A stretch of DNA of 63,056 nucleotides, filler included, from Platydemus manokwari (Eukaryota), in NCBI GenBank assembly GCA_037951405.1. It is 6 parts of 6 records of this genome, joined end to end, with 100 filler letters (N's around TTAATTAATTAA, not from the genome) between each part and the next. Parts side by side here need not be neighbours in the genome. Positions count along the whole stretch, not along the records: positions 9,105 to 22,699 come from JBBMOY011675846.1; 5 more parts are not named here. One strand, written 5' to 3'. Below are positions 9,105 through 31,794 of the stretch, piece after piece (positions within the stretch are counted from its first letter, which is position 1; each line of letters opens with the position of its first letter). The notes below the pieces were generated by a model. The model worked only from the letters and a program-made list of their open reading frames with translations. It did not search any database and had not been told where the DNA came from. Position numbers and translations under genes: made by a program.

Positions 9105-10006
9105 TATGGAATTGTTTCATGAGCAATAGTGTATAAGAGATTTGTTGATAATATTGATTTTCAGAAATACCAATTGTCGTACATGATTACAATGGATGAG
9201 ACAGCTGTATTTATGGGACAAGATTCGCAGATAACAGTAGACATTCGTGGTGCATCATCAACAGGTTATGAAAACTAGAGGGTTGCCTGTATTCTTGCAC
9301 TTTGTTTGGATGGAGCAAAGCCAGCGCCTTTTATTATTATTAAAGAAAAGAAAAATAAAATTGAGCAGTTGGCTGGTGTGTACATTTTGGAAACAGAAAA
9401 GGCATGGAGTACCCAAGCAGTAATTAGAAAATGGATTGACCTAATGTTGAAAATAGTTTTATGAGGCAACAGAAGATGTTTACTTACTAATTATATGAAA
9501 AATTTTCTTTAAGCAAGAAGCGTTGATCAAATAATGAAACCGGCTGGCATGACAGGGTATCTTCAAAGTTCAAATTTGGTAATAAATAAGCCATTTAAGG
9601 ACAATATTAGTTTAGAAATCAATGAGTATATTGAGAAGAGAATTATAAGAAATGAAAAGGGAAACTTTGTAAAACCGAATCCACAAGTAATAGTCAAGCG
9701 GATTAGTTATACCTGTGCTAAAATTAATGATAACTGTGTCAAAAAAGCTTTGAATACTGCTTCATTGCAAAAAATGAAAGATTAAGACCACTTATCAAAG
9801 AAAAACTTAATTCACAGGAATTAATTGAGTGTTCAAAATCTTGTCGCAGGAGAGGACGACTTAACTGTGTTTGATTAAAATGCCTGTATCTTATTTAAAC
9901 CTTTGAAGTATTATAATAAAAATATTTTGATTTTTTTAATTAATCGGTATAAACCTTAACAATTTTATTATTTATAATTTATAGGGTCCGAATTTAATTC
10001 CGACAG
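9105..10006 (+). mobile_element. pogo-family (DDE_1) transposase pseudogene with probable right terminal repeat
   Basis: ITMDETAVFMG...RVACILALCLDGAKPAPFIIIK...KAWSTQAVIRKWI and MKPAGMTGYLQSSNLVINKPFKD match the pogo MDET, G.KLPP.II.K, AW and P.G.T..LQP.D..N.PFK motifs. Terminal-like gggtccgaatttaattccgacag-TA at ~9984-10008. Confidence 0.85.
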
Positions 10007-11544
10007 TAATGATAACATCAGTGAAGAGAATTGCAATGGTGATAAGAATGCGGATAAATCAATCTCCAAATGGATTGTGAGACAGCTATAATGAATTACA
10101 ATTTTCAAACGAAAATGAGATAACAAAGATAGTTTAGAAATGAACACCGAATTTAAAATAAATTTTTTTATAATTTTGAGTTATATTAAAATAAAATCGA
10201 AGGTTTGGCGTTATTGAATATCGAATAATAGACAAATAAAGGAAAGAGCTGTTGGTATATTAAAAATTAAAACTTGTTTATCATGGTTACGTTATTGAAA
10301 GATTAATTTTATTTGAAAAATTTCATTGAATTCTCTACTAGAGGAAAAATAAGGCAAATAAGAAACAATTGTTAGAATTGAAATGTATAACAAAATACAT
10401 TATAGTCAATAATAATTGACCTATAACAATGAAAAATATACCGGCACCTACTAGTTTAAAACTCAAGACAATTTATGAAAGATATACATTCACAAGAAAC
10501 AATTAAAGACGGAGTAATAAATATCCCGTAGTTAATAGAAGAGAAGGGGAAATAAATATTAATGAGTAGAAACATGAATATGGAAACTAAATGACAACAA
10601 ACACACCATGAAAAAGAGAAAGCTAGTATCCTAAATTAAACTAGTAATCCAGATCAGGGTAATTTTCTTTAAATAAATTTTTTATATCTTGATGATATTG
10701 CTTAATTAACGTCTTTGTTAAATATTATAAATTCAATGGATCGAGTTTTCATTGATTTATGAGAATATTTATATTCAATAAATATATTTATTTTAAAATA
10801 TGTTTTAATCTTTTATGTCGATGTATTTTATTTTATTTTTATCTATTCTTTAGAAAAATCATTATTAATATTATAAAGAAAAACACAACCAGCTACACAC
10901 AATTGATTTTTATTACTTGCTTTAATAACTAGGAATATTTGAACACCAATTTAGTAAAATTGTTCGGATTTTCTGATTGAATTTCAAAAATAAAATTGAT
11001 TAGTTTTTTACAAGTAAATTGATATAAATATTGAGGTAATTCGATTAAGATTCCAATTAATGGAACTTTGTGATCAAATGGGATACACTCATTACCGTGT
11101 TCAACAAGAAGAATAATCATAAAGCTAATCGATTTAAGACCAGGAAATTTGACAGCAGATTTTCGGGCCCTAATTAAAAGAAAATGGCGATAAACAAGAT
11201 ACCAGAATTTTAATAGTGCTTTACGAAACGAAGATCCCTTAAACATTACACACTTGATATTTGAATAACAACCAGAAACGATAGGGGAGGTTAGCCACTC
11301 TTTTCCTGTATTATACTAAAAGTAGATTTATTTGTACGTTCTGGGAGCTGTAAACGAGCAAAGTATTGTAAAAGTATTTACGAGAGTATTAATCGACCAG
11401 GAGTAGTCCCTCGGATAGAATCCTAAGTTTGAGCGCAGACGAGATTCGTTTCTTGATATACGAGTTTTCCATTGTTCATTGACTGTGAAAACGAATTCTT
11501 CTAATTCCAGAGAATTATTAAATAAATCTAAATATCCTAAGCCT

Positions 11545-12050
11545 GTACGTCTTTTATTTAATTTAAATAAAATACTAAAATTAGAATTATTTCCAAATGT
11601 AGTTTTTGTTAAATCAAACCAACTTGAGATGAATAAATTATATTACAATTAGTGTGCCTTCCTTTTTTTAATTAGCACTTATAATTTTTTTTCGTTTGTT
11701 ATGTAGCACAATCATCAAATATTATTAAATTCTTTTTAGATTGGTTTGGATCAAACAGACTAATAATTTAATCACAAATTTCTCTAATAACTAAAGTTTT
11801 TGTCAAATTTACCTTGTTCTTCACATATTTTGATTATACGTTCTTTTGATATGTCAATTTTAAAAGCATGATATAAAAGTTTAAATTCTTCTTGATAAAC
11901 CTCATGCAAAAATATTATTAAATTATTGTAATCTAAAAAATTTGCAGTTAATAACATTTTCAAAAGTAATCCAATTTTACCGCAACCCGAACTTCCAATA
12001 ATTAACATTCTGAAAGATGAAGGAACATTTCCGTTATTTTTAAATATCAT
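11545..12050 (-). pseudogene. Polinton/Maverick A32-like (FtsK-HerA) DNA packaging ATPase, frameshifted
   Basis: Walker A RMLIIGSSGCGK. After frameshifts: Walker B KKNLIIFDDC, KGRHTNCNIIYSSQ, and WFDLTKTTFGNNSNFSILFK, the conserved motif series of A32-type ATPases. Confidence 0.9.
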
Positions 12051-12692: not shown

Positions 12693-12931
12693 AAAGATTG
12701 GAATATATAAGAAAAGCCAAAGATACTAAAAAATTATTGAGAATCCAGAAGATTTTAAAAAACAATCTAAATTATAGAATTAATATTAAAAGTATCATGA
12801 AAGGAAAGATCACTATCGGATAGAATTGGAATATGATAGAAAATCAAAAGATTTAGCTATTAAAAATATTCGAAAAATCGGAGGAAAAAGATACAAAATT
12901 AAATTATTCAAAATTACATGTTCCAACTAAA

Positions 12932-13600
12932 TTGGCATTACACCACGAAGGCTTATTAGGTCAAGAATTACACCATGATTATAAGAAAAATTTAGTTGTC
13001 AAGCCTAAAAAATCTAGTGATGGTCATAATTATGTTTTAATTGCTGTTGATTTATATACAGGATATGGTTGGTGGATTCCTTCAAAAGATAAAAAAAAAC
13101 AAGAGTTTAGTTGAAGTGTTTGAAAATTGTTTTGAGAAAGATTAAATAATTCCAAGATATATTTGGTTGGATAAAGAAGCTGGGATGACAAGTTAATTTT
13201 TTAAAACATCTTATGATGATAATTAAATTATTTTATGAACAAAAGAAAAGCAGAATTTCTTGATAGATTTATTAAAACTTTAAAAACCATTTTACAGCTG
13301 TTGGAAATCGATAATGGGTTAATAATTTATTAATAAATATAATAATAAAATTCATTCAAGTATTGGAGTGTGTTCTGTACAAGCTTAGAAAAATCCAGAA
13401 ATTGTTAGAGATTATAGAAAATCATAACAATTTTAATGATAATTCAAATAATATACAAACATTTAAAGTTTCGGATAAAGTTAGAATATTTAAATCTAAA
13501 AATAAATTTGATAAAGATATACAACACAAATTTGCAAAAGTTATATTTATTATTAAAGAGGTTTGTAAAACAAACATATAATTTATAAATGTTTAAAATA
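12932..13600 (+). pseudogene. Polinton/Maverick retroviral-like (rve) integrase, degenerate
   Basis: LGQELHHDYKK, GHNYVLIAVDLYTGYGWWIPSKDKK, PRYIWLDKEAG, DRFIKTLKT, YNNKIHSSIG and FKVSDKVRIFKSKNKFDK...IFII across frameshifts. Confidence 0.9.
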
Positions 13601-13907
13601 AAAGAATATTTGCTTGTGGAAAAGATGTAATATGGAAATATATTATTGAAGTGTTACCAAATTATGACTTTTGAATCCAAAATAAAAATGAAGAAGTGTT
13701 AGCAACTAACAAACATTATTATCATTGTCAACATTTGTCATGACGTAAAACTAAATGAAAATTACCAGATAAACATTTATTTTGAAAATATTTATAATTA
13801 CATGAAATATATGTCATTCGTTACCACTAATTTCTTGATTTGATCATGATTAAATATCTCAGGAAAATCAATAATTAGATCTTGACTAAATTGTTGGGAT
13901 AGCCCGC

Positions 13908-14110
13908 TACATAAAACTATATAAAAACATAAAACTATATAAAAACAAAAAACTATATAAAACCCCCTAAACTCCAAAACCATATAAAAAACTCCTTAAA
14001 CTCCCTATAAATAAACCTCATACAGATATCATGTCCTACAATAAATGCACGCTACATAGAATTAATATTTAAAAACTCCCTATAAATCACTAAATATATA
14101 CCTTAAAATA
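13908..14110. repeat. Short tandem repeats (aaaactatataaaaac), probably Polinton subterminal region
   Basis: Three near-identical ~18 bp units at 13913-13965, followed by aaactccctataaa variants. Confidence 0.7.
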
Positions 14111-14349
14111 TTTCCTGAAGTGTGGACTGATCTGCTGCAAGCCGTCAATAACAATCAACAATACAATCTCCGTCAACAGTATATTCTCCAAAATAAACAA
14201 TAAAACGGAGTTGATTATAACAATAAAGCTGATTTGATCTTTTGCTCTTAGTAGACTGTTGTGTGTTTTAATATTGTTTGTAACGCTTTTATTACTATGT
14301 TACGGGTATTTTATTAAGAGCCAAGGGCATTGAGCATATAATAATGTTA

Positions 14350-15355
14350 ATCTGAGTATTTGATCGATATAGGATGCATGCAGAATGAGTTAAGTATAAT
14401 TACTGACATAGATAATAAAGGATAAATGATGCCAAGGCCCGTCTCGCTATACCATCTAAATAACTTAACAGAACTGCAAGAAAGAGAAGTGCAACTTAAA
14501 CTACTGATTAACGAAACGCCTCTTTCAATAGCAGAAGAGCCTACAAGGATGGTCATAGAAGTAGGGGATCCCGACGACGTAATATTGGAAGAAATTCAAG
14601 AGGTGTAGAACCAGAAGAAATTCAAATCCAAGAAGAAAAAAAATTAGAAGAAAGTCAAGAGAAATTCGTCGAGTCACAGGAAGAGGGAGATTATGGGCAA
14701 TTAATCCCACCTGTCAGAAGACAATCAGAATTCGCAGTGCCTGAATGAAGAAGCCAATCAGCTAACCAAGCAAGGATAGAAGAATCTAGACCAAGACATT
14801 CATGACCTGGGAGACCAAGAAAGGATCAAATGACAAGGCACACGCTAAGTGCCACCACAAATGCAAAGATTAAAGCCAGAGCTTTAGAGTAGGTTGCACG
14901 GAATTTGATAGAGCCCACAGGGATTACGCATGAGGCATCTACACATGCAGAGGACATTTTATAGAAAGTTTTGAAACTGTTACATCCGGAATTAACCTCA
15001 CCAACAGATCTTTTGGATAATGAGTTATTAAGAAAACTGAGGACCGAATTGGTTAGAGTAGAAGCTCAAATTCAACATATCATATCAGATGAAAAGAAAG
15101 ATGACGAAGAAATCATCAGAAGCTTTGCTCAAGGAATAATGGGGCGTGAGAAAGATCAAATAACTATATGGGGTAACTACAAAGCATCCACAGAAATATC
15201 AAGAAACTCTAGGAAAAATGGCCACGTCGATGGAAAAGTATATCAAGCCATGGATGGATAGACATTTTGGATGGGAAGGACTGATCAGAGAGAAGAGCAA
15301 ACCCAAACCATCCAAAGTAAGAGAAGCACCGACTATAGAATTGGGATCACAGATG
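14350..15355 (+). pseudogene. Degenerate retroelement-like polyprotein segment (acidic low-complexity region, AT-hook, helical domain) running in frame into the glycoprotein
   Basis: Purine-rich, higher-GC segment with a continuous frame after two frameshifts: MPRPVSLYHLNN...EPEEIQIQEEKKLEES...PGRPRK...LLHPELTSPTDLLDNELLRKLR...KYIKPWMDRHFGWEGLIREK...ELGSQMTMIL. Confidence 0.6.
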
Positions 15356-16006
15356 ACTATGATATTATAAATAATAATCATTGTAATGAGTTTATTTAAT
15401 AGGACAGGAACTACGGCCATACGAGCATTCGATTGCGATAAATCCAAACTGGGAAAGATATATTCGTTAATGGATTTGGAAGAGTTTCCGGAGGCACTAC
15501 CGATGAAGATAAAAAAAACAAAAGTAATATACCACGTATATCAAGAGACTGGCTATGGAAGAGTGAAGGTAAGAGAATGTAGAGTAAAAAGGGCTAAATT
15601 CGAATAACATTGCGGATATCATAGCCACGCATCCATAGTCACTCCCGAAATGATAACCAGAGCCATAGAAATTCTCACAACAGCTTGCAACGATGCTTTT
15701 ACCACAAAGAAGTTAAGAATTGATGAGAAGACGACTCTCAAGGTAGAAAAAGGGGTAATAAATATAAAAAATCCTAATCGAAGGAGGAGAAATTAACGGT
15801 GATGGTCTATGTACTGAACGAACGGTCAAGTTACTGTCTATGATTGTGAAACCAAGTTGAGAGAAGTAGAAGTTTTTGATGAGAAATCAGAAGCCATGTT
15901 ATCACATCCAAACTGTACTACTAAAGTAACTAGCTGTTTCACCGGACAAGCAACTTTAGTATATGAGGTACGGCCAATGGAATGTCAATTAGCTTATATA
16001 AGCTGA
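15353..16006 (+). pseudogene. Chuvirus-like (Jingchuvirales-type, class III) envelope glycoprotein, N-terminal ~210 codons, truncated
   Basis: Signal peptide MTMIL*IIIIVMSLFNRTGTTA, then IRAFDCDKSKLGKIYSLMDLEE...VYQETGYGRVKVRECRVKRAKFE*HCGYHSHASIV...ACNDAF...GEINGDGLCT...NCTTKVTSCFTGQATLVYEVRPMEC. Motif order matches chuviral G (YDC..SL.D, CGMHSH.S.V, G..C, C.....C...T..W...C). Confidence 0.85.
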
Positions 16007-16249
16007 GTTGAATTTTTCCAAAACAAAAGGAGAAATAATTAAGAAATAATTAATCATAATATTATTTAAGTGAGACTAATTTAAACAAAAATTCAATTAA
16101 CAAGCCCGAAACCCACAATGTCAAAAAAGTTTTTTTATTTTTCAAAAAGGGGAATAATTCTAAGTTTTTATTTTTGTATTTTAAAAAAGGGGGGTATCTT
16201 TTTTTAATTTTTTGGGGGTGTGTGCTAAAATCACCTTTTCCCCACTACT
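16007..16249. mobile_element. Probable Polinton/Maverick terminal inverted repeat end
   Basis: AT-rich homopolymer-rich block ending ...ttttccccACTACT (reverse strand 5'-AGTAGTgggg), the typical Polinton terminus, with sharp compositional change on both sides. The partner end was not found. Confidence 0.6.
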
Positions 16250-17860
16250 TGTTTCGCCGACCTAACACAGCTGCCAAACGACCTCAAGTTTGGGACAAGA
16301 GTTACGCATGACCAGGGCAGTCATTATCTAAGTTGCCGGAAGATATCTTTTGGATAAAACAATTCCGCTCCAAGTGAGTGTATGGAAACGAACCCATGTT
16401 TACTTGCACACCACTACGGAGGCAGTATCAATATGAATGGTGGTGCGGACTAAATTATAGAATTGGCACCACACTACACCCTTGAAATCAAAAACTGTGA
16501 CCATAGATTGTGCAAAACCACCATAGAAACCTTTGCACTGAACACAACTCTGGTAATGGAAAGAGAAGAAGCAGAATACAAGTCCACCTTCATCGCTCCA
16601 ACAATCACGAAATGGGCACCACTCTCCCTAAAAGAAGTGTACCCGTACCACTCATTTATCTGCCAGAGGCTAAGTGTGACAGACATCAGAAATCAATTTC
16701 TCATTCTCAACACTCGAATGGTAGCCACAGCGGATATAACAATACAGAGGGAAACCGAAAACGCATTATTTGCCGTTACCATCATGGATTAAACCCATTA
16801 GACATTGGGAAAATACGGAGATGACAAAATTACTGAAAGAGATATAGTTGGCCAATGGGACGTGGTGCTGTGCAAAAACACGTTGAAAGAAGTTATGGAT
16901 GGAAAGATACTTGTAGGATTCATAAAAGCCGACTCACTAGAGGCCACAGGCATCCAACAAGAGAGGGTATTATGAATCAGAGACCTGGCTCGGGCAAAAT
17001 GTTTAAACGTCAAAGCGTTCATAGCCGCCTCGGCCTTCAAATGGAACTGGATTAAAAAGGCAACCATCCAATCCCAACTATATACCAGAAAGAGTGTCGG
17101 ACCGAGAATATATCTCAGAAATCAGACAAATTTATAGTCTTAGAGCCAACTTGGCAGGACCAGGTACAGATTGTAACTGATTCCGCCATGTAGATTGAAG
17201 AAACAGACGAGGAAATTGGACAGCTCGTAATTGATGAAGAGCTAACCGTACAGGCTATAAGCCAGAAAACCGAGAAAATGCTAATCGAAGTAAAACAGAA
17301 CAAGCAATTCATCAACGCAGATACCAAGCCACATCAGATCCAAATAATCACTAAGGAGCAAACAAGAGCAAACGAGAACGAAAAAACGAGCAGTATAGAA
17401 GAACCAAAGGAAAGAGCACAGAACCAAAGTAATAGCACAGTAATAATAGAAACTAGAGTACCATAAAGTGGACCTGGCCGCCGACCCAGTGGAACCAATC
17501 CTGGCACCGTCAGCCAGCGAAATCAGGTAAACCATCAAAAGCAGTAAAACCAGGCAAGGAACACCGGCGAACACACCTCAGAGTACACCTCAAATGTAAT
17601 CAAAGGTGAAAGTAAAAGATAAGCCAAGGGTCGAAGTAAAGAATTTTTCCAGGATCCCTAAAAAATTTAAGAATCTACCGCAGAAAATACCAGTACTGAA
17701 ACTAATAGACAAAGTCATTAAAGAAGATGACAACGAATAGCTCATCACAGCGGTGCAGTATACTAATAAACGCACAAAAGAGAAACTGTTCCTCAAGTAT
17801 GCAAACCCGATATTGTAATTCTAACCGAAGACAAGGACAGAACAAACCCAGTCAACTAGT
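16250..17860 (+). pseudogene. ~540-codon degenerate ORF of unknown function, probably the C-terminal part of a retroelement polyprotein
   Basis: One frame with isolated stops from CFADLTQLPNDLKFG...LAPHYTLEIKNCDHRLCK...GQWDVVLCKNTLKEVMDGKILVGFIK...FKWNWIKK, then an acidic/Pro-rich tail after frameshifts. Composition is similar to 14350-16006. Confidence 0.65.
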
Positions 17861-18193
17861 AGAAGTGATCCAATAGACAATTATTGTTATTCATCAAACT
17901 TTAATTATTATAAATTTTATCATACTTTGTGATCTTTATCAACCTTCTGACTCTTGTGCTATGTAAAGACTCTATATGTAAAAGTGTATGCCTGTAAATA
18001 ATTTTATAAATTTATGATAATCAGTAAATATGATAATCAGTATAATCAATCAAAGTATGTAAAGAGTTGTGTCCTACCGTCAAAAATCTTTAAATCTTGG
18101 CCGTCTAATTTCTAATCTTTAACCTGAAAATAATTATAATAATTAATAATCAACTCCAACGTACGCCCACAGGGAAAAAATACTATATATAAA

Positions 18194-21100
18194 TGGGCGA
18201 CGAAGGAGATTGGCCGGAAAAAATTTTCTCCAATCATCACGGATAATCTTCAAGGGAAAATTATCGTATCATCACTTCGTCATTTTTAAGCGAAAACTAT
18301 CGACAAATTCGCATATTCTCGATCGTTAGGATAAATCTTCAAGTGGAAATTATTGTCAAATCCTCATATTCTCGATCGTTAGGATAAATATTCTAAATCC
18401 TCGATTCATTGATTCGTTTTTAAACTTCGAGCGATATCAATTCAGCCTCTAAATTAAATTCCGAACAATATAATTATCATCAGGATTATTCTCACAAATG
18501 CATTCGGTAATTTTACTTATAATCTCTACATCTGTGTATAAAGGCGCAAGGGTTTGTACCCGGGAGCACTTTTAAATTATGAGATCTTGGTATAAAGGCG
18601 GAAGAATTTGTAGCCCTAAATTACTAAAATTAAATTCACGTCTCCTTTAGTTTATCATCCGAAGTAAAGCGGCACTTAGTTCCTTTCGTCGGTTTGTTTT
18701 AAACATCTTCAGGACGCAACACTGTTATCTGTCAAATTATTACATAACACATTTGTTAATTTTTATAATAGAATTGAATTATCATTTTGTTATTGGTTAT
18801 ATCATTAATATAGTTTTCAGTACTATTACACCTGAATTATTACACGCAACCCAATTACTGATTAAAGTCGGATTATTGGTGGAATCATCATTGTTCCGAT
18901 TCTAATAATCATTTGAATAGTGCATAGATAGTGCATAGAGTTTTACTAGTTGAATTAACTCTTATAATTAACTATTCACCAGATACTACTTAGTACAGGC
19001 TAGTAGGATTCCATCAGAGTAATTGATAAACATAAAGAAATAGTAAATGAGGAATGGAAAAAGACAAAAGAATACTAACAAATAATAAGAAGTGTAAGCA
19101 ATAAAATTAAGCGCGAAGAGTGGAAAAAATATTCAATGGGAAAATAACTTAGTGTAAACATAAATTAGAAATTAAATAACAAAAAGGAAGGAGTAATTTA
19201 ATAAAGGACGACACTAACTCAAACGATAAAGAAAACAGAAAAAGACATTAAAAACAAGAACAGCATGTATACTAAGTTTCGCCATTATAGTTACATAAAT
19301 AATATTAGCAGTCATAATAATGTATGAAAAGAAAGAAAAAGTCGATCTAGCAGCTATAAATATAAGACAAGTACCTAGAATAGCGACAATTATATAAGCT
19401 TTGTTAGTGATGTTCAACCATGTGAAAGTCCAGTGATGTATAAAAAAAAAAGATCAAAGTATACTCAAGATACGGACAGATTACATTAATTGATAATAAT
19501 GATAAAGAACAGTTTACTGTGCAATTATTGAATGAAACGAATGTTAGAGGACATGTTTGGAGAAAATAGAGTGCACGAAAGTGTAAAGGGAGAGAAAAGT
19601 ATGTATAATTTGAATTGCGGTGTAATTTACCAATTAATAATAAGAAAGGGTAAAAGTAAGAAAACAATGATAGTTCAAAGACCTGAAATGCCAAGGAAAG
19701 TGTTTGTTGAGATATTTTTAAATAAGTGCAAATAAAATGGGAAGATTTGAATTGTATGAATGTAAGAATGCATGTAAACAAATATCAATACATGATAAAT
19801 TCAATAGAGAGAACAATGACCCAAGAAATAAAAGAGGATCAGTTAGTCCAAATAAATATCTGGTATTACATGAAAAGTAACCCGATAATGATAATACATC
19901 GAGAACAAATAATCATACAGTCTAAAATCTTGATAAAAATACAATTAAATCGATGGTCATAACAAAAGAAAATAGAACAGAAGTTGAGTAAGAAATTACG
20001 AGCATTATGCTTAAAGGAAAAACATCAATGAATATAGAGAATAAAAAAACATTAGGAACAATAATTTAAAGAGTAACAATTACAAGCGTGACCACTATGG
20101 AGTTGATGATTCTGAGTTATAAGGTCTATAGGATCACCATAGATGTGTCATTAAGGCTTGACAATTACAGGACAAGATGTTGTATATTGATAAAACATAT
20201 AGATAAAACTGTAACATAACAATATTATAGTCGTATGCTATAGAAATAGAGTCTGTATGAATATATCTAGTAGCAACAAATTTGGTATGAATGAAATTGC
20301 TAATAAAAATAGAGTAAATTGGAAAACAATTGATGTAAATAAAAATAATATAGGAAAAATTCTAAATATTAAATATTCTTTAAATATTCGGAATATGGTA
20401 GAAAATCTGTAAATAATTCGGTAGAAAATGAATCTGTAAATAAAAATAATTTAGTCAGCAAAAAACCATTTAATTTTTTACCCAGTATAAAGTCGGATAA
20501 ATTAAATAAACATTCGTTGGCAAAAAATAATTCGCCAACCAATCAGAATAATGAGAAAAGTCGCAACCAATGAAAATTCAACCGTAAAATCATATAAAAA
20601 CTCGAAACACCCTTTTAAAACTGTCACTTGTCAAATTTGCTCGGAAACAAGTAAGTTATAATTCGTTGATAACTTGTATTTGACCATAATGTTGGGAAAG
20701 TGCTTCCAATGCCCCAAGCACCTCCTATAATATAGCCACAAATGCCCATAGCACCTCGAATAATGAGAAGTTAATACTAGACGAGAATGAAGATAGGATA
20801 AATGGGATAAGCCCGAAAAAGTCGATCGGAGCGAGCCTAAAGAAACAGTAAAAACAGAACCGATGACCTCAGAAGATCCAAGAACGGAAAACTCAAGATG
20901 GTGGGAGATGCAAAAGCGAGTAGATATGGGCGAGGAATATGACCTCGGATATCTATAAAAATTACATTATCTATAACATTTTATGATTATAAACATGTCT
21001 ATAATCTTTGAATTTTAATTTCTAAGTGAAAAACTAAAAATATTTTAAATTTCTAAAGCGAATTTTCCACTTCTAAAGTAGTATAAATAGGCACCAAAAA

Positions 21101-22699
21101 TCATTAATTTTCGCACATAAAAATATCTACTGGAAAAGTTAAAATCTTGAAGACAAGTCTACGAAAAACTGCCTACGATATCATTTTTAAAAAGAATAGT
21201 TAATAGATTGAGAAAACTTTATAGAAAGAAACTCGAACATCTGCGACAATTCTGGATATTGCATAAACAAGGCTTAACAGCAAGGTGCGCAGAGTGAAGA
21301 AACCTAATTGAAGTTAATATTTTAAAATTTATAAATTTAAAATCTAGTATTTATAAGGCCGTTTCGTCAAATTCGAATCGGCCATTCCCAAACCATAAAT
21401 TGATTGAGTTAATTTTCGCGTCTGTTTGGAAATAAATAAAATTGATTGTTGTGCCGGTATATTAATTAAATAAATCAATTATCTGTTAATTGTAATTTGT
21501 ATAAAACTTGTATTTGTAAAAGTTTCAATAGAGGACTATTCTCATAAAATCATCTTACATTTTTGATTTATTATTTTATTAATAGTTTCGTTTTATAAAG
21601 ATATTCATATGGTAAACAATTGTTGTAAGTTATGGTATTGTTTAAATAGACTGATATTCAAGAAGGTTGATTTGAATTTAAATTAGATCAACTTTAATGA
21701 ACTCACTTGTGTTGGGAATACTAACTAATAAGACTAAAACCCAACAGTAATTAAGAAAATAATGAAGGAAATAAACCGCGGTATTATTCGTTACTACCCA
21801 AGAAGATTTTATCATGCATATTAAGGCCAAGAAGTATTACAAGGGAACATCTCACTGCTTCTAAGGAACTGTAAGCACTTTATATTGTTGCAACACTTTC
21901 AATTAGTAATAGTAATTCATTTTTAATCTTAATATTTAATTGCGCAGCAACAACCCTATTGAGTTGTTCTGGTGTTTAAATTATTAAACTACAAAAGTAT
22001 TTTTAACCTTTTGTTATATACTCACAATACACTCTAGTCTGAACCCGGTTCAACTAGAGCCAAACTCTATTAAAATCTAAAATCATAAAACAAATTCGGT
22101 CCAAGAGGTTACGGTGCCAAGTAGGCCTAACCTCCAATAATCTTTCAAATTTACGGCTCTTACCGGGAAACCTAAGAGACTATACAAAAATCATCCGCTC
22201 TATCGATATAGGGCCAGTAACTTTTCTACTTAAGCGCAAACTTATAAAAACAGGCCTGGTTATTCGTTTAAAACATCATTATTTTGAAATTTTATTCACT
22301 GATAATTCTGTTAACTATTATTGTTTGAAACTTTATTTACTAATTGTATTATATTGTATTCTATATTCCAATATATATTTACAAACAAAATTAGTTTTAA
22401 CCATTAATTATCATCAGTATAGTTATAATACACTGCACCTTTGGAGTCAGGTGATACGAAAAATAATAAGCTATATTTAGAATACGCAAGTTGGGATAGA
22501 ACTATTTATTAAACTAAGCAATAACAATCAACTGTTGGGAAAGCGCCTCTAACACCCCAAATACATCTCACTATGCACCACCTAATGCCCCAACAACAGC
22601 CACAAATGCAAGTGAGAGAATAGAATTGGATCAGGATGGCAACTGGGATGGAACGGTTTATCGTGGGGATAAGCCCGAGAAGGTTGGCCGGAAGGAACC
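18194..22699 (+). mobile_element. Putative polypurine tract and long LTR-like region
   Basis: gggcgacgaaggagat followed by TGgccgg (~18211) downstream of the ORF and an AT-rich UTR. Internal direct repeats catattctcgatcgttaggataaat (18313, 18365), two TATAAAggcg boxes (~18537, ~18592), and a segment similar to 40520-40620. Confidence 0.4.
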
Positions 22700-23587: not shown

Positions 23588-25392
23588 ATGTCGAAAATCT
23601 TTCGAGCTAAATTATAAAGATTTAAATAAATTGGTAATTAAAGATAAAAGTATCCCGGTAAGCTCTAAGAAAATTAAAAATGTTAAACATGCATTATTAA
23701 TTAATTTCTTGTTTAGTCTTGTGGCTTTCTCTGTGAAGGTTATCGTTACTGTTGAAAACCAGGAACTAATTCCAGAACAAATAATGGATTCATTTATTAA
23801 TGCGATTGAGGAAGTTGCTGGATCTGAAATAAATTCATCATCAGTCACAGATGTTGAAGAATCTAATGATAAACTCACAAATTGGATTAATTCCAATAAG
23901 AGGCATAAAATTTATCATTATTTTGATGATTTTCTCTTTGGGTATTGATTTATTTTTTAAAAAATAACTTGACTTAAAGCTACTATAAATGTTCTCAGTG
24001 CTTTATATGCTCGGAAAAAATTCAAAAATCAATGTAAGATATTTGGAAAGACATTGAAAATTCTTTCCAGAAATTCTGTTATCGATTCTTTATTGAAATC
24101 AGTGAGTTTTTTCTTTTTGTGATTTTATATTAGTTGTCCGTTAATTAATCAATTAAAATCTTATTTTAGAGTCATTCGGTTGTGAGTTTTGGATGTGGAC
24201 CTGGCCCAGAAATTGTGGCATATATTAATTGCATTCGTAATGTTTTGAAATGCGATAATTTACCATTGGATATATTGGCAGTTGACAGATTAAAATATTG
24301 GGGGAAATATATTTCGAAGCTAAATGAGATTTCAGATTCTAATACAACAATTCGATTTGAAGTAGTTTATATTACTTGGATAAGAAATATTGTTTTTATC
24401 AGTAGTATGAAACCAATATTAATAATAATTATATTAATTATATCATAAGTGGATTTAATTTAATTTTGCATTACTTGACAATAGGGAGTATTTTGTATTT
24501 CAGTTTGATTTATTAACTCATTTATTTGCCATTTGCAGTTATATAAATGGAAATGCTGATACTGAACTCAAATAGAAAAATAACATGTTTCCATGGTTAC
24601 TGATTGACTGACATTGCAGATATAAATGAACATATTTAAGATTCCTAAACAGATCTATTAACGTATTATTTGTTGGAACTGAGTCATAATTTATTGATTC
24701 AATCCATAAATCTTTAAATCGATATTCATCGTCATCTGGCATTGATAATATTTTATCGGTATTAAAACAATCAAATAATTATAAATCAGTTACAATTAAT
24801 TAATTTGTACAAAATCAGTCGACAACATTTAAGTGAGTCATAATGAGATGTGCTGTAAATGTTAAATTGAGATATTAATGTGATGAGCTCAAAATAATCT
24901 TTATGTTTATTTTTGTTTGAATGAATATTGTGTGGATTGATTCTATTATCTTGTTTTTATTTAAATTTGATTTCGAATGAGCCACAATAGCCCAATATTT
25001 TATAAATAATATTTTAAATGACAACTTTATCAATTAAGGAAGGAGATCTTTGTGAAACATTTCTGCTAAATATGTCAATCGATGCCGATGTGTGCATTAT
25101 GTTATTCCCTCATTCGATGAATTTCTCGAATATCTGCGATCTGATGACAATGAGATTTGATTTGATAATACTTGTTGATAATTTGAGTCGTGAAAGAGAT
25201 TCGATGATGATAAGTTATGGTTTTCAAAAAGAAAGTTTACAAGGGATCGGGATTTATTATTATTTGAAGGATAGATTTTCTGGCTTGGAAAGCATTAGAT
25301 ATCAAGAAAAAGATGATAACGTTTTTTCTCTTAACACCTATTTTGATGATGAGGTTCATGATTATAGTGATTTCTTTAATGATGCTATTTAA
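23588..25392 (+). pseudogene. Intron-containing class I SAM-dependent methyltransferase-like gene, possibly disrupted
   Basis: Exons near 23588-23657, 23718-23941, 23980-24101, 24170-24361 and 25018-25392. Motif I SHSVVSFGCGPGPEIVAY, motif II ILAVDRLKYW, then ADVCIMLF. Apparent 1-nt frameshift just after the ATG and no clean AG before the last exon. Confidence 0.6.
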
Positions 25393-27237
25393 TTTACAAA
25401 GCGTGTTTTAAAACTAATGTTATCTCATATAATATCAATGATTATTTCAGGCTTCGATGTATTTCTTTTTCATTGATTTTGTGAAAAATATTTTGTTAAA
25501 TATTATTTTATGGGGATGAAATTGTTGATTCTTATAATGTTTATGATGGACCTTTAGATCAAAGCAATAGCAACTGGGTAAGAAAGTATTTCAGCTGTAT
25601 TTAGTCAAGTTAAAAGAATTTATTTGATTTCAAGTGATGTACGTGAATATAAACAAAATAGAATTAATATATTAGGTCATCCGAAAAGTAATGTCCGTTT
25701 TGACAATTTCAAATTTTGATTGATATATTATCAATCAATAGGATATCCAATCTAATTTTCGTCATATCTATCGATCGTAGTATTTGTGGAGTGTAATTTT
25801 GTTGAATAATATAATAAATAAATAGAATAAATAACTTGACCTAAGTAAATTATAAATAAGATGACAATAAGAACTGCTTAATACCCGAAAATAAAATCGT
25901 AAAATAAAATGATATTACTATAGACGAGAATTTGAGAAAATAACTAGCCGTGCAATACTTTTAGATTTTCAATTGTTCAGTTTTTGTAAGATTTTTTGAC
26001 CTCTTATACCGGTACCTGCCAGTGCTCTCAGTTGATTTTATCGATTTTAATTTTAAGATCTTAGATTTTTAATTTGGGTCTTAGGTGAATGAGATTCGGA
26101 TCAGAACTTTTATTTTGAAATATAGATCAAATATGATTTTAACGTAATTACAATCACTTGATCGACGCGTACACGTTAATATCCATTTCGTACTCAGATA
26201 ATAATATATAATATTTCTTTGAGGGAAGGTATTCTTCAATAATAAATAGCATAGTTTGTAGAAACTGCGTTGATGAATGTGAACCGTGAATTGATATTAA
26301 TCCATGAACTTATCTTGTTCACTATTGGACTCGTTAAAATCTATAGCATATAACCAAACTATTTTAGAAGATGATAGCCACAAGGGTAATGGTAAAATTC
26401 ACCAATTATAACTAGGCCAAAATAGAAATTTATTTATTTGCATTTAATTATATCTAGTAGACGACTAAATTTAGAATGAAATTGTGTCTTTTATACTTTC
26501 TAATATGGTCATTTATAACTTAGTTCAAACCAAATAAAATTCAATTATATTACACCAAGAAAATACCATTTTTATTGAACATGTTTCTTTTAATTGGAGA
26601 TAAAATCTTTTTTTAATTTATTTTTATGAAGTGATATCACATATTACATATGATATTACATATTAGCCACACATAAAATATTTTAATAAACAAATCGCTG
26701 ACAGTTTAATTTCTTCGGCACTTTAATAATCTCTTTCCACGTGGTGTAGGATAAATGAAACTATTTTTTATGTATGACCATCAATTCCATATGAGAACAA
26801 TCGTTCGTATACTCATTAATATCTGTCAATTAATATAATCAATTGGAAACCTGCTAATATCTTTGAAACAGTTTGCTATTTGGTATACTGATAATATGTT
26901 CCACTTGATTTACGTGTCTTGCTTAGATTGGATAGATATGACATTCTTTGTAAGTGGTCACGTGAAAAAGATTGAAGTTGAAATAATTCAAAATGAAATC
27001 ATTTATGGTTTTGAAGCAATTTTTAATGAGATATTTAGTTAATAAAATACCTCATACATTATTTATTGATGTCATGACGCATCCGATGAAAATAATAAAT
27101 ATTGGAGATTTTCCAGTTTATGATCTGCATCACTATGTAAGATGTATGATAACACTGAACGCTTTTAATAAAAATATAACAACAACCCACCTGTAAACTT
27201 TATTTATGATGAGGACTTCATGATTTTTATTATTAAA

Positions 27238-28810
27238 GACAGATTAGCATATTGGGGGAAATATATTTCCAAGCTGAATGAGATTTCAGATTCTAATATA
27301 TCAATTCAATTCAAAGTATTTTATACTACTCGAAATACAAATATTGTTTGTATAAGTAGTATTAAATCAATAATAAATATTATATAAATAATATCATAAA
27401 TGACATTTCAAATGACAACTTTATCGATTAAGGAAGGAGATCTTTGTGAAACATTTCTGCCAAATATGTCAAATGATGCTGATGTTTGCATCATGTTATT
27501 CCCTTATTCGATGAATTTCTCGAATATCTGGGATCTGCTGACAAAGAGATTTAATTTGATAATATTGATTGATAATTTGATACGGGAAAGAGATTCGATG
27601 ATGTTAAGTTATGGTTTTGGAAAAGAAAGTTTACATGGGATGGGGATTTATTATTATTTGAAGGATGAATTTTGTGTCTTTGAAGCACAGGGTGGTTTCG
27701 GTTTTGAATTTGATTCTAAAATCGATTCTGATTATAATATCTTATAATATCGATGATGTCAATATTTGTGATACAATTATTAATTCTGATTTCATATATT
27801 TGGTTGTGATCAATTGTTTTGTTGAGTTATTTTAGATACTAGTTATTGATTTTTCATGTTGATTAGTTGAGTAAAAATAAAATTAGTTTCATTGATGTAT
27901 TATGTTTTCTAAAAGTATTCCAGAAACACAAATCGATTGAATAATAAAACATGTTCCACACAACCAAACATATTTCAACAATTTTTTTGGAATAATTATT
28001 GTTAAAAATTCCAAGATGTAAAACTAGATTGATTTATTGATTTTAATTAAATTATGAATGAAAATAAGATAACAAGGCTGATAGCTCCTGAATAGGTTAT
28101 CTGTTTGAAAATTTCTCTATTTTTGTGCTAATGAAATGTGTTTTAAAACTAATGTTATCTTTGTCTAAAATCAATTCCTATTTCTTTTTCATTTATTTTG
28201 TTCAAAATATTTCGTTAAATATTATTTTAAGGGGATAAAATTGTTGAATTCTATAAGGTTTATGGTGTACCTGTAGATGAAAGCAATAGCAACTGGGTAA
28301 TGGAACCCAGTATTTCGGCTCTATTTAGTCAAGTTAAAAGAATTTATTTAATTTCAAAAGCTGTTATGAACGAAATAGAATTAATAATCAATAATTTGAT
28401 CTAAGTAATTTATGAATAAGATGGCAATAGAACTGATTAATACGAGAAAATAAAATCGTAAAATAAAATGATATTACTATGTACGAGAATTTGAGAAAAT
28501 AACTAGCTGTGCAATACTTTCAGCTATTGTAAGATTTTTTGATCACTTATACCAGTACCTACCAATGCCCTCGATTGATTTTATCGATGGTTAGGCCTAA
28601 TGGCATTGTAGAATTATTTTGATTTTAAGATCATAGATATTAATTTGGGTCCAAGGTGAATGAGATTAGAATTAGAACTTTCATATTGAAATATATATCA
28701 AATGCGATTTTAACATAATTATCATCACTTGATCGATGAGCACACGACAATATCCATTTCGCACTCAGATGATAATATAAAATATTTCTTTGATGGAAGG
28801 TATTGTTCAA
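27238..28810 (+). pseudogene. Partial tandem duplicate of the methyltransferase-like locus
   Basis: gacagatta..atattgggggaaatatatttc.aagct.aatgagatttcagattctaat and MTTLSIKEGDLCETFL are repeated, and 28135-28810 closely matches 25400-26240. The motif I exon is absent. Confidence 0.85.
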
Positions 28811-31794
28811 TAACGAATAACATAACTTTTCTTGTGCTGTGAAAAGTTGAATGATAAACTGAAATTGTTTTCTGAAAACTCTGTTCTGCTTGAATCTATT
28901 TCTGAGGTTCGGTTCTGAAATTATGGCCCTGTTGAAATACAAATTCCTCGAAATTCTCGCGAAAATTATGGCAGTCAGCAACTGAAAGCCTTCTTTTTTA
29001 TACTGCATCACTGTGCAGTGTACCAATTAGCCACCATCTCGAGCTGGTTAACCACCAATTCCATGAATTGATGTTGTTCTGTCCTAAAATCGGTCGAAAT
29101 CATTTCGCCGATTGACTATCTTCCAGTGAAGCCAAAGTTCAATTTCCCACCACCTACACTTTTTGGTACTTTGGCCCTGATAATATGCTGAATTTACGAG
29201 AATTTCCGACCTGGGAAATTGATTTCTATTTTATTTAAATAATTCAGTTAAACAAACTGAATTATTTAATAATTTATTTTATTCATTATTTTTTAAAAAT
29301 AATTATACTTAAATACATATTCTTTAGAAAGAAATAATTTTATTTTAATAACCATTATTCTATTTTAGTTTTATTGATATATTTTCACATTTAGATCATT
29401 TCAATTCAAACTCCTTTAATCCTTTTGTTTAAATCAATCAATTTCTGTTATTTCTTTTCATTAATTATATTTAATTGGTGCGCTCTTCATTATTATTTTA
29501 ACTATATATAAATAATAATTATTATAAATATCAATATTTCAATCTGGTATTTTCTCAAAAATTCCAAAGATTGTCAAAATATAAAAAATACATATTGATT
29601 AAATAAAAAATTAATACAATAAAAATTAATACCCATTTTATACGTACTGCCATGCAAATGTATATAATATTTTTCTATGTGAATTAATTGTTGTAAGTAA
29701 CTTGTTGGGTCAGAACCCCAATAAATAAATTAGAGATCAACACAATGTTAACTAATTATTGCAGAATTTCAATCGGCATTCCGCCAAATTAGAAAACCTG
29801 GTAAACCGGAAGAGAGAAGATCAAGATTCTATATGACTAGTATTGCTCTGGAAGATAAATTGTAATTAAAGTCAAGCATATTTACCAAATTAAACAATAA
29901 GATACATTATTGTAAAATTATCAATAATTTATATCGTCGAATATTGTTCTCAATCTATAAAGCAATGCTTATTCTCGTGAACTATATTTCTCACGATTTA
30001 CTTATTTATCTGTGAAATGTTACAGCAAATTTTCATTGTAAATGCTTATCAAAACTAGATTATTAACAAGTTTTATTTTGGAATATTTAAAACAATAAAC
30101 TTTTTATTAAAATCAAATGTTCAGTTTTGTATTTGCCAGGGGTCTTTAAAGTTCATAACGTCACTTTGGTAATTATCATTCATCATCTTTTAAAAATTGG
30201 TCAATGATGAAATGATTGTACAGGCTTGATATGAACATCAACGAGAATATGTATCAAGAATAATTCAATTGTGTTTTACAAAGTACCAAACTTAAGAATA
30301 ATAAAATACTATCGTACTCCGTTTATCTTGTCCCCATAGAAGTGATTAAACGATTGTGACGAAGGAACGCCTATGATAATATTAAATTACTACCCGATGG
30401 TCATTAGAAATCAAAAGACTGGTATAAATAGTTAATATTGAAAGAACTTGAGTAAAGAAGTAACATTTCAGATTATAAATGTATTCTACAGTAGTTGTAA
30501 TAGATAACATTTGTACTAATACAATTTGATAAATTATTGCATCGTTAAGTTTGCGATGTTTAATCATTTTTACGACAAATTTAAGAATTTAAATGAGCTC
30601 TGTGGAAATAAATTAATTGTCGCAATTTAAAACATGCTGATGAAATATGATTGCTATCGATTTTAATTAAAAATCCGACTCTAATAGATGTAATTACTTT
30701 AGTAGTTATAAGACTTTTTAAATGACAAACATTAGTACTAAAATATAATTAATGAATCAAGGTAAATTAAATATGATCCAATATATCAGATGAAAATCTG
30801 ATTCAAAATAATAATTGACAATTAAAAATTTACGAATAATCAGGGTTAGTTAAATTCAAAAATATTGTTGCTGTAGAAGTCCAAAGTTTCGTAAGGCATT
30901 TTCTTTGATTGTCTTCTATGCTTTTAGCCGTAAGAGCCCTGTCTGTCACTACAGGCTTACTGATAGTTGAGACAAAAATTCAAGCAACCACTCCTTAAAT
31001 TTCAACTTATACTGTTGTTTATAAATTACTTATCAATTGAACTGGGTTCAAGTCAGGAATTTATTAAAATAATTTTCGAATACAATTGTTGAGGATGCAC
31101 CATTTCAATTCACATCCAATTCTACAAACACATCCAACACCCATCCAATTCTAATTCCAACGATATCAACAATAAACTTTTTCTTAATCAACTATACTCT
31201 TATTACAATCAATTATCAACAAACTTTATGTTTAATCAATTTTTGCACAATCCTAACAACACAAACAACACATCAGTCCCAATTCATTAATCAAATCAAA
31301 TATCTCAAGTTTCAATCAAAATCTAAAACCTCAATTCAAATCTGAAATTCCAATCCAAATAACAATCCCAACTCTTCAATCAACAATCGAGTTCAAACCC
31401 GAGCGCCCATCACCGACTTTGACTCCTATTTACCGACTTCGAATTCCATTCAATTCCATTTACCGACTTCAAGTTCCATTCATCAATATTAAACTTTTAA
31501 CTGATATTTGATTTGATTTAATTTGACTAACATTTTAATTAATTTTTGAACTCTTAAAATATCTTTACTTTGCTTAAAAATTATCTTTGATTGTGAAATA
31601 ATCATCTTTTAATTTGTAAACCGGAAGATAACGGTTATAGAGAACGACACATGGTTGAGCAATGTTAATTAAAAATTAAATAAGAGCAAAATCACAATAG
31701 CAATAATAGCGAATAATAAGAAATCAAGCACAGCAATTTTATATATTAATATAAGAAAGAAAGAATAAGAATAGTAAATTATGTTGAATAATAA

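Follow-up and report, generated by a model that had tools for sequence, protein, structure and literature searches.

A fragment of a probable Burro-like retrotransposon joining a Bcl-2-like domain to a class III fusogen in a likely flatworm genome

We report that positions 14348-16003 of the window, by which we mean the whole 63,056-nucleotide stretch of DNA analyzed here, are probably the broken middle of a single long ORF from a Burro-like Ty3/gypsy retrotransposon of the GAG-ENV-POL arrangement, an assignment made by sequence comparison, in what is likely to be a flatworm host. The fragment preserves, on the forward strand, the order probable ubiquitin/SUMO-like (Ubl) remnant, acidic linker with an AT-hook-like motif, Bcl-2-like domain (BCL2), signal peptide, and envelope (env) domain. 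The window consists of contigs strung together through N-spacers, and the env fragment lies on the contig at 9105-22699. The G+C content of the whole stretch is mostly 21-32%, and the region from ~14300 to 17900, which holds the env fragment, stands at ~37-39%. Neither gag nor pol gave any signal in the window, either in a Pfam scan of its frames or with a pol profile built from relatives, and a direct repeat pair or paired LTRs are absent from the 13.6-kb contig. With gag, pol, and paired LTRs all missing here, relatives at 27-51% identity are the guide to both the RT type and the size of the window's own family.

The downstream part of the fragment, 15425-16003 (+), encodes the first third of a class III fusogen of the chuvirus/gB type, as the earlier note had proposed on the strength of a set of motifs. 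All of these are present on the forward strand, namely AFDC (15425), YSL.D (15461), C.V (15578), HCGYHSHASIV (15608-15640), G.DG.C (near 15798, in a second frame), and C-x6-C (15914-15937), and the match is far beyond chance. With stops read as X, the region matches the Pfam family PF24664 (Monjiviricetes_fusion) at E 5.5e-18 and 64.7 bits, against a curated cut-off of 27, over profile positions 5-132 of 653, and a profile built only from 13 relatives recovers 15362-16015 at E 5.3e-56. When only the C-terminal two thirds of env are used as a profile, nothing in the window matches. We therefore take the env gene to be real, broken, and cut off at ~16003, about one third of the way through; in relatives, the distance between the same motif and the membrane anchor at the C-terminus is ~540-555 residues. 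The env frame carries four stops in 207 codons (the other two frames have 24 and 16), and the reading frame changes near 14600, 15170-15200, and 15775-15825. With its stops, frame changes, and truncation, the copy is dead, in keeping with the first reading of the sequence.

Structural comparison with chuvirus G and gB, made on a relative, points the same way. The relative P0010, which is 34% identical to the window env over the shared part, was modeled with a mean pLDDT of 75.9, and its model matches HSV-1 gB at E 5.5e-13, with TM-scores of only ~0.3, and chuvirus-type glycoproteins (Tacheng tick virus 4 G) at E 3e-42; these values describe the fold of the relative and not that of the broken copy. 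PDB sequence and sequence-profile searches with env returned nothing relevant. A word-index search with the env piece gave zero matches among longer proteins, whereas a full HMMER scan succeeded.

Upstream of the fusogen, the earlier note had recognized an acidic, AT-hook-bearing, and helical stretch; all three are present as read, but the Bcl-2-like nature of the helical part had been missed. This domain (14926-15298 (+), interrupted by the frame change near 15170-15200 and containing a BH2-like motif at 15251-15274) is classified as Bcl-2-like by its profile and relative matches. The upstream part of the relative P0028 matches 14926-15168 (E 0.0013) and 15209-15298 (E 5.7e-5), and a Bcl-2-like profile made from relatives only, with the window rows left out, recovers 15179-15295 (E 5.8e-5) and 14953-15153 (E 0.028). 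When seven relatives are aligned with the two window pieces of the domain (alignment A2), a PDB search with the alignment hits Bcl-xL at E 2.2e-5, and seven of its nine rows match Pfam Bcl-2, all below the curated cut-off. In a fold search with a model of the domain, every listed row is Bcl-xL or Bcl-2, at E 0.03-0.2, with no E below 0.001. The seven relatives, picked by eye from the 65 matches to env, have the same Bcl-2-like domain directly ahead of the env signal; a profile search found no further bearers among the 65, many of which begin inside env. A search with P0028 also returned a locus (L001) that we rejected as a chance match, given its G+C content of 63% and its lack of an env.

Ahead of env lies a hydrophobic segment (15353-15424 (+), containing one stop), whose core at 15353-15397 has a mean hydropathy of 2.75 over 15 residues. 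It agrees with the internal signal peptide suggested earlier, and a hydrophobic segment occupies the equivalent place in all 12 of the relatives checked. The 3' part of BCL2, the signal, and env share a single frame. On the other side of the Bcl-2-like domain, the acidic low-complexity linker (14408-14925 (+), with the frame change near 14600) contains RPVSLYHL at 14435-14458 (+) and the AT-hook-like PGRPRK at 14806-14823 (+); an AT-hook-like motif is found upstream of env in four of the 12 relatives checked (P0007, P0013, P0015, and P0019). The 5' edge of the recognizable polyprotein fragment, 14348-14407 (+), probably represents the C-terminal remnant of a Ubl domain. It ranks first among 125,988 six-frame positions (score 25.7, the next being 17.0) for a 20-column motif from three relatives that was chosen post hoc, and P0013 has a Pfam ubiquitin match at the same place in the domain order (E 0.031). 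Because the motif was chosen after the likeness had been seen and a whole-domain Ubl profile does not detect the window remnant, this 20-residue call is a weaker one.

The wider setting of the fragment emerges from its relatives. The HMMER scan of 1.84 billion representative proteins gave 65 matches at E <= 0.001, of which 26, mostly long ones picked out of the set, were scanned with Pfam, and eight of these were rescanned at a looser cut-off. The best match to the window env is a Gag-env-protease polyprotein at E 3e-33. Four of the 26 (P0011, P0019, P0032, and P0037) carry env, protease (PR), RT, RNase H (RH), and integrase (IN) in one ORF, the integrase being of the H2C2/rve type, and three more (P0007, P0009, and P0015) have a protease downstream of env. 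Taken across P0007, P0013, P0032, P0011, P0019, and P0037, env lies in frame between Gag (CCHC knuckles) and PR-RT-RH-IN; the window copy is truncated at either end and has neither. P0032 reads Ty3 capsid-CCHC-env-PR-RT-RH-IN, and P0013 reads CCHC knuckle-ubiquitin-Bcl-2-env; the capsid match of the former and the ubiquitin and Bcl-2 matches of the latter are weak (E 0.02-0.06, looser cut-off). P0009 holds Bcl-2, env, and protease only, and none of the polyproteins scanned has Bcl-2 and RT in the same sequence. With single-ORF Gag/env/pol polyproteins as the nearest relatives, the proposal that the env was encoded in frame inside a retroelement polyprotein is supported. Among the 20 matches whose names were looked up, 14 had none, and the others comprised two viral glycoproteins, two wasp proteins, and two entries named 'hypothetical'. 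Repeated aspartyl-protease domains follow env in P0007, P0009, P0015, and P0019, with up to four stretches in P0007. The NCBI entry for P0011 is a hypothetical protein assigned to a Flavobacteriaceae MAG, which likely reflects eukaryotic contamination of that bin.

The same order of domains is on record for Burro/GYPSM1, giant planarian LTR retrotransposons of the Ty3/gypsy type (Jurka, 2007; Grohme et al., 2018; reviewed in PMC6431247). In the account of Burro given in that 2019 review, ORF1, of 4,873 aa, runs in a single frame through Gag, accessory domains, a Ubi2/SUMO-like domain, BCL2, env, protease, and pol (PMC6431247). As this Bcl-2-env layout was already described in 2019, the fragment is likely to be an unremarkable dead copy of an element type already known. 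Its likely membership in the Burro-like elements is predicted from domain order and env relatedness, with the order compared to the published description of Burro.

It is unlikely that the fragment instead derives from a gypsy GAG-ENV-POL element with Ubl-BCL2-env outside Burro proper, be it from a family of smaller size or from a host that is not a triclad. P0013, which fits Gag, Ubl, BCL2, and the start of env into 800 residues as against the 4,873 aa of Burro ORF1, speaks for it, as does the derivation of the relatives from ENA/JGI assemblies. So does the host marker, which gives only a weak, phylum-level hint. That marker is an uninterrupted 485-codon, single-exon GH20 beta-hexosaminidase on another contig (50255-51712 (-); Pfam E 8e-79), with two close relatives at 91% and 82% identity; its best named matches are from Macrostomum (47%), a trematode (40%), and amphioxus (37%), with no named triclad match. 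These matches lean to flatworm, though amphioxus is also among the top ones, and the flatworm-like genome surmised earlier is thus likely. Against an origin outside Burro proper stand the domain order, which is that printed for Burro in the 2019 review (PMC6431247), and the env itself, whose closeness to one Schmidtea family is like that among the Schmidtea families themselves: in one ungapped block, counted by eye, it shares 33 of 77 residues with the env of Smed_errantivirus_4, within the 31-64% seen among Schmidtea families in the 2026 eLife catalogue (PMC13524379). Were the fragment from outside Burro proper, the working would be the same and the known range would be extended.

The earlier note had drawn a parallel to the BEL/Pao (Anakin) retrotransposons and proposed an independent env capture, with RPVSLYHL as a possible integrase tail; the corresponding reading, a BEL/Pao retrotransposon with env behind the integrase as an Anakin-like independent capture, we regard as very unlikely. 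RPVSLYHL, which is loosely like a BEL/Pao tail motif, misfits the spacing of that motif and follows the probable Ubl remnant, between it and the Bcl-2-like domain. Neither Pfam nor the pol profile detects an integrase or pol domain upstream of env in the window, and neither RT nor integrase is found upstream of env in any of the 26 relatives scanned; in all four pol-bearing relatives, pol is downstream of env. The domains listed for these four are of the Ty3/gypsy type, namely RT_RNaseH, Integrase_H2C2, rve, and one Ty3_capsid, with none of the Pfam families that we presume to be specific to BEL/Pao. The membership of the env in the same broad fusogen family as the Anakin env (PMC7642597) agrees with a BEL/Pao element, a reading that is already largely refuted by the above. 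We conclude that the element is not BEL/Pao and that there is no evidence here of an independent env capture, the arrangement being already published for planarian Burro in the 2019 review (PMC6431247) and for planarian errantiviruses in the eLife catalogue (PMC13524379).

A plain endogenous chuvirus glycoprotein gene, devoid of retroelement context, would account for the Pfam and fold matches to chuvirus-type glycoproteins and for the lack of pol in the window, but its likelihood is exceedingly small. The two viral glycoproteins among the matches, those of Tacheng tick virus 4 and Wuchang cockroach virus 3 (P0048 and P0066), rank low, with E 4e-6 and 6e-4 as against the 3e-33 of the polyprotein, at 29-30% identity over ~110 residues, and their match starts within the first 20 residues, leaving no room for Ubl or Bcl-2. 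In an unrooted env tree with 33 rows, one for the window and the rest drawn from the 65 matches, a 98/93 branch separates a 9-row side containing both viral proteins from a 24-row side containing the window and all pol-bearing rows. Within this retroelement side the window env has no firm placement, and the rows that carry Bcl-2 do not group together as a single clade (three changes). The scanned frames of the contig have no Pfam match to viral N or L. Domestication of such an element into a host gene has no better prospects: the Burro1 IAP region, which is anti-apoptotic, is said to benefit the host (cited in PMC13465017), but the multiple stops, frame changes, and truncation already refute this reading for the window copy, unless the breaks are assembly errors.

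Several other features were observed around the fragment and elsewhere in the window, which has zero Rfam and tRNA matches. Contigs of one sequencing run (X1) are identical to the window at 14265-14876, and this run, the one with window DNA among the listed sequencing matches, may be the window's own source; no RNA run is among those matches. The summed contig depth in one sequencing run, which is not a copy number, is 459-1665 over 14099-16368 versus 45-56 over 16369-17730. Three stretches, at 13892, 20690, and 22533 (+), begin with TGTTGGGA, like LTR 5' ends, and X1 contigs join 14188-14205 to 20870-20893 and 22635-22699. This suggests that the stretches are dispersed remnants of a single repeat family; no two of them bracket the env fragment. 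After an AT-rich break, a second decayed coding stretch occupies 16230-17880 (+), with five stops in 298 codons of one frame and ~40% G+C. It has no Pfam match, no match to the pol profile of four relatives, and no tblastn match from the 65 relatives, and a comparison with proteins 163-522 aa long gave no homologue either. Because all these searches came back empty, we rejected its reading as a leftover integrase; it is probably another element. By eye, 12900-13650 (+) has heavily decayed integrase-like frames, which we take to be of the Maverick/Polinton or Ginger type; their AT content exceeds that of the env fragment, to which they seem unrelated. Also by eye, 9105-9900 (+) has a decayed DDE/pogo-like transposase frame, and 10900-11650 (-) a decayed frame with GxxGxGK, a motif reminiscent of a Polinton packaging ATPase; none of the three has a Pfam match. 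Further along the window, 24284-26253 and 27238-28824 form a degenerate direct duplication with a spacing of ~2.4-3 kb, 82-91% identical in blocks.

Returning to the Burro-like element that we favor, the two hydrophobic segments flanking env in the relatives suggest how an intact member might work. Its polyprotein would cross the ER membrane twice: Gag and the accessory domains would remain cytosolic, the internal signal peptide would direct the env ectodomain into the ER lumen, and the C-terminal env anchor would bring the protease, RT, RNase H, and integrase back to the cytosol. The parts would then be freed by signal peptidase together with the protease of the element, and env would let particles enter other cells. 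A cut after this peptide would give the Bcl-2-like domain a hydrophobic C-terminal tail, like that of cellular tail-anchored Bcl-2 proteins, and it would likely dampen apoptosis in the expressing cell. Having lost gag, the whole of pol, and two thirds of env, the window copy is capable of none of these steps.

One may go further and envisage, in this genome, a compact and still active lineage of Burro-like elements whose env signal peptide also serves as the membrane anchor of the Bcl-2-like protein, such that a single cut gives both an apoptosis regulator and a fusogen by which the element spreads from cell to cell. We consider this doubtful; if true, it would be a second anti-death cargo besides the Burro1 IAP, gained or lost several times across the relatives. 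In the literature that we found, the BCL2 motif is named only in the 2019 review (PMC6431247), and Grohme 2018 and Lee 2026 may cover it as well. That literature holds no test of the signal-peptide/Bcl-2 anchor idea; Jurka 2007, the 2026 Burro1 paper, and the figures and supplements of the eLife catalogue (PMC13524379) may cover Bcl-2. In the main text of that catalogue of planarian gB-type env elements, 'Bcl', 'apopto', and 'Burro' have zero occurrences (PMC13524379), and the finding thus joins two literatures. By itself, the fragment adds one more occurrence of a published architecture and little else; the interest lies in the family, which combines a class III fusogen and apoptosis regulators within one retrotransposon polyprotein. 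For the questions of infectious particles and of the role of the Bcl-2-like domain, intact Schmidtea copies are far better material than the window copy.

Compared with known systems, the fragment shares its class III fold and cysteine pattern with the glycoproteins of Tacheng tick virus 4 and Wuchang cockroach virus 3 and with herpesvirus gB. However, the chuvirus-type glycoproteins are stand-alone viral genes whose signal peptide is N-terminal, and they fall on the other side of the env tree. The Anakin elements of mosquitoes likewise couple this broad fusogen family, as a chuvirus glycoprotein, to an LTR retrotransposon (PMC7642597); in contrast to that BEL/Pao element of an insect host, the relatives of the window fragment have a gypsy-type pol downstream of env, with Ubl and Bcl-2 upstream. 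Closer still are the errantiviruses of Platyhelminthes with an HSV/gB-type env of subtype C1a, of which the 2026 eLife catalogue lists nine, six of them in Schmidtea, in a GAG-ENV-POL arrangement that likewise places the gB-type env before pol; those elements are intact, whereas the window copy is dead and lacks pol (PMC13524379). With Burro, the fragment has in common the order Ubi2/SUMO-like-BCL2-env in one frame, the Ubl part here being a short and only probable remnant, although the window keeps only a 1.65-kb middle piece without Gag, MATH/BIR/ankyrin domains, protease, RT, integrase, or long LTRs. According to the review's treatment of Burro, its env is likewise related to mononegavirus-type fusion glycoproteins, and decayed fragments with stops and frameshifts, such as the one described here, are known from Dugesia japonica (PMC6431247).
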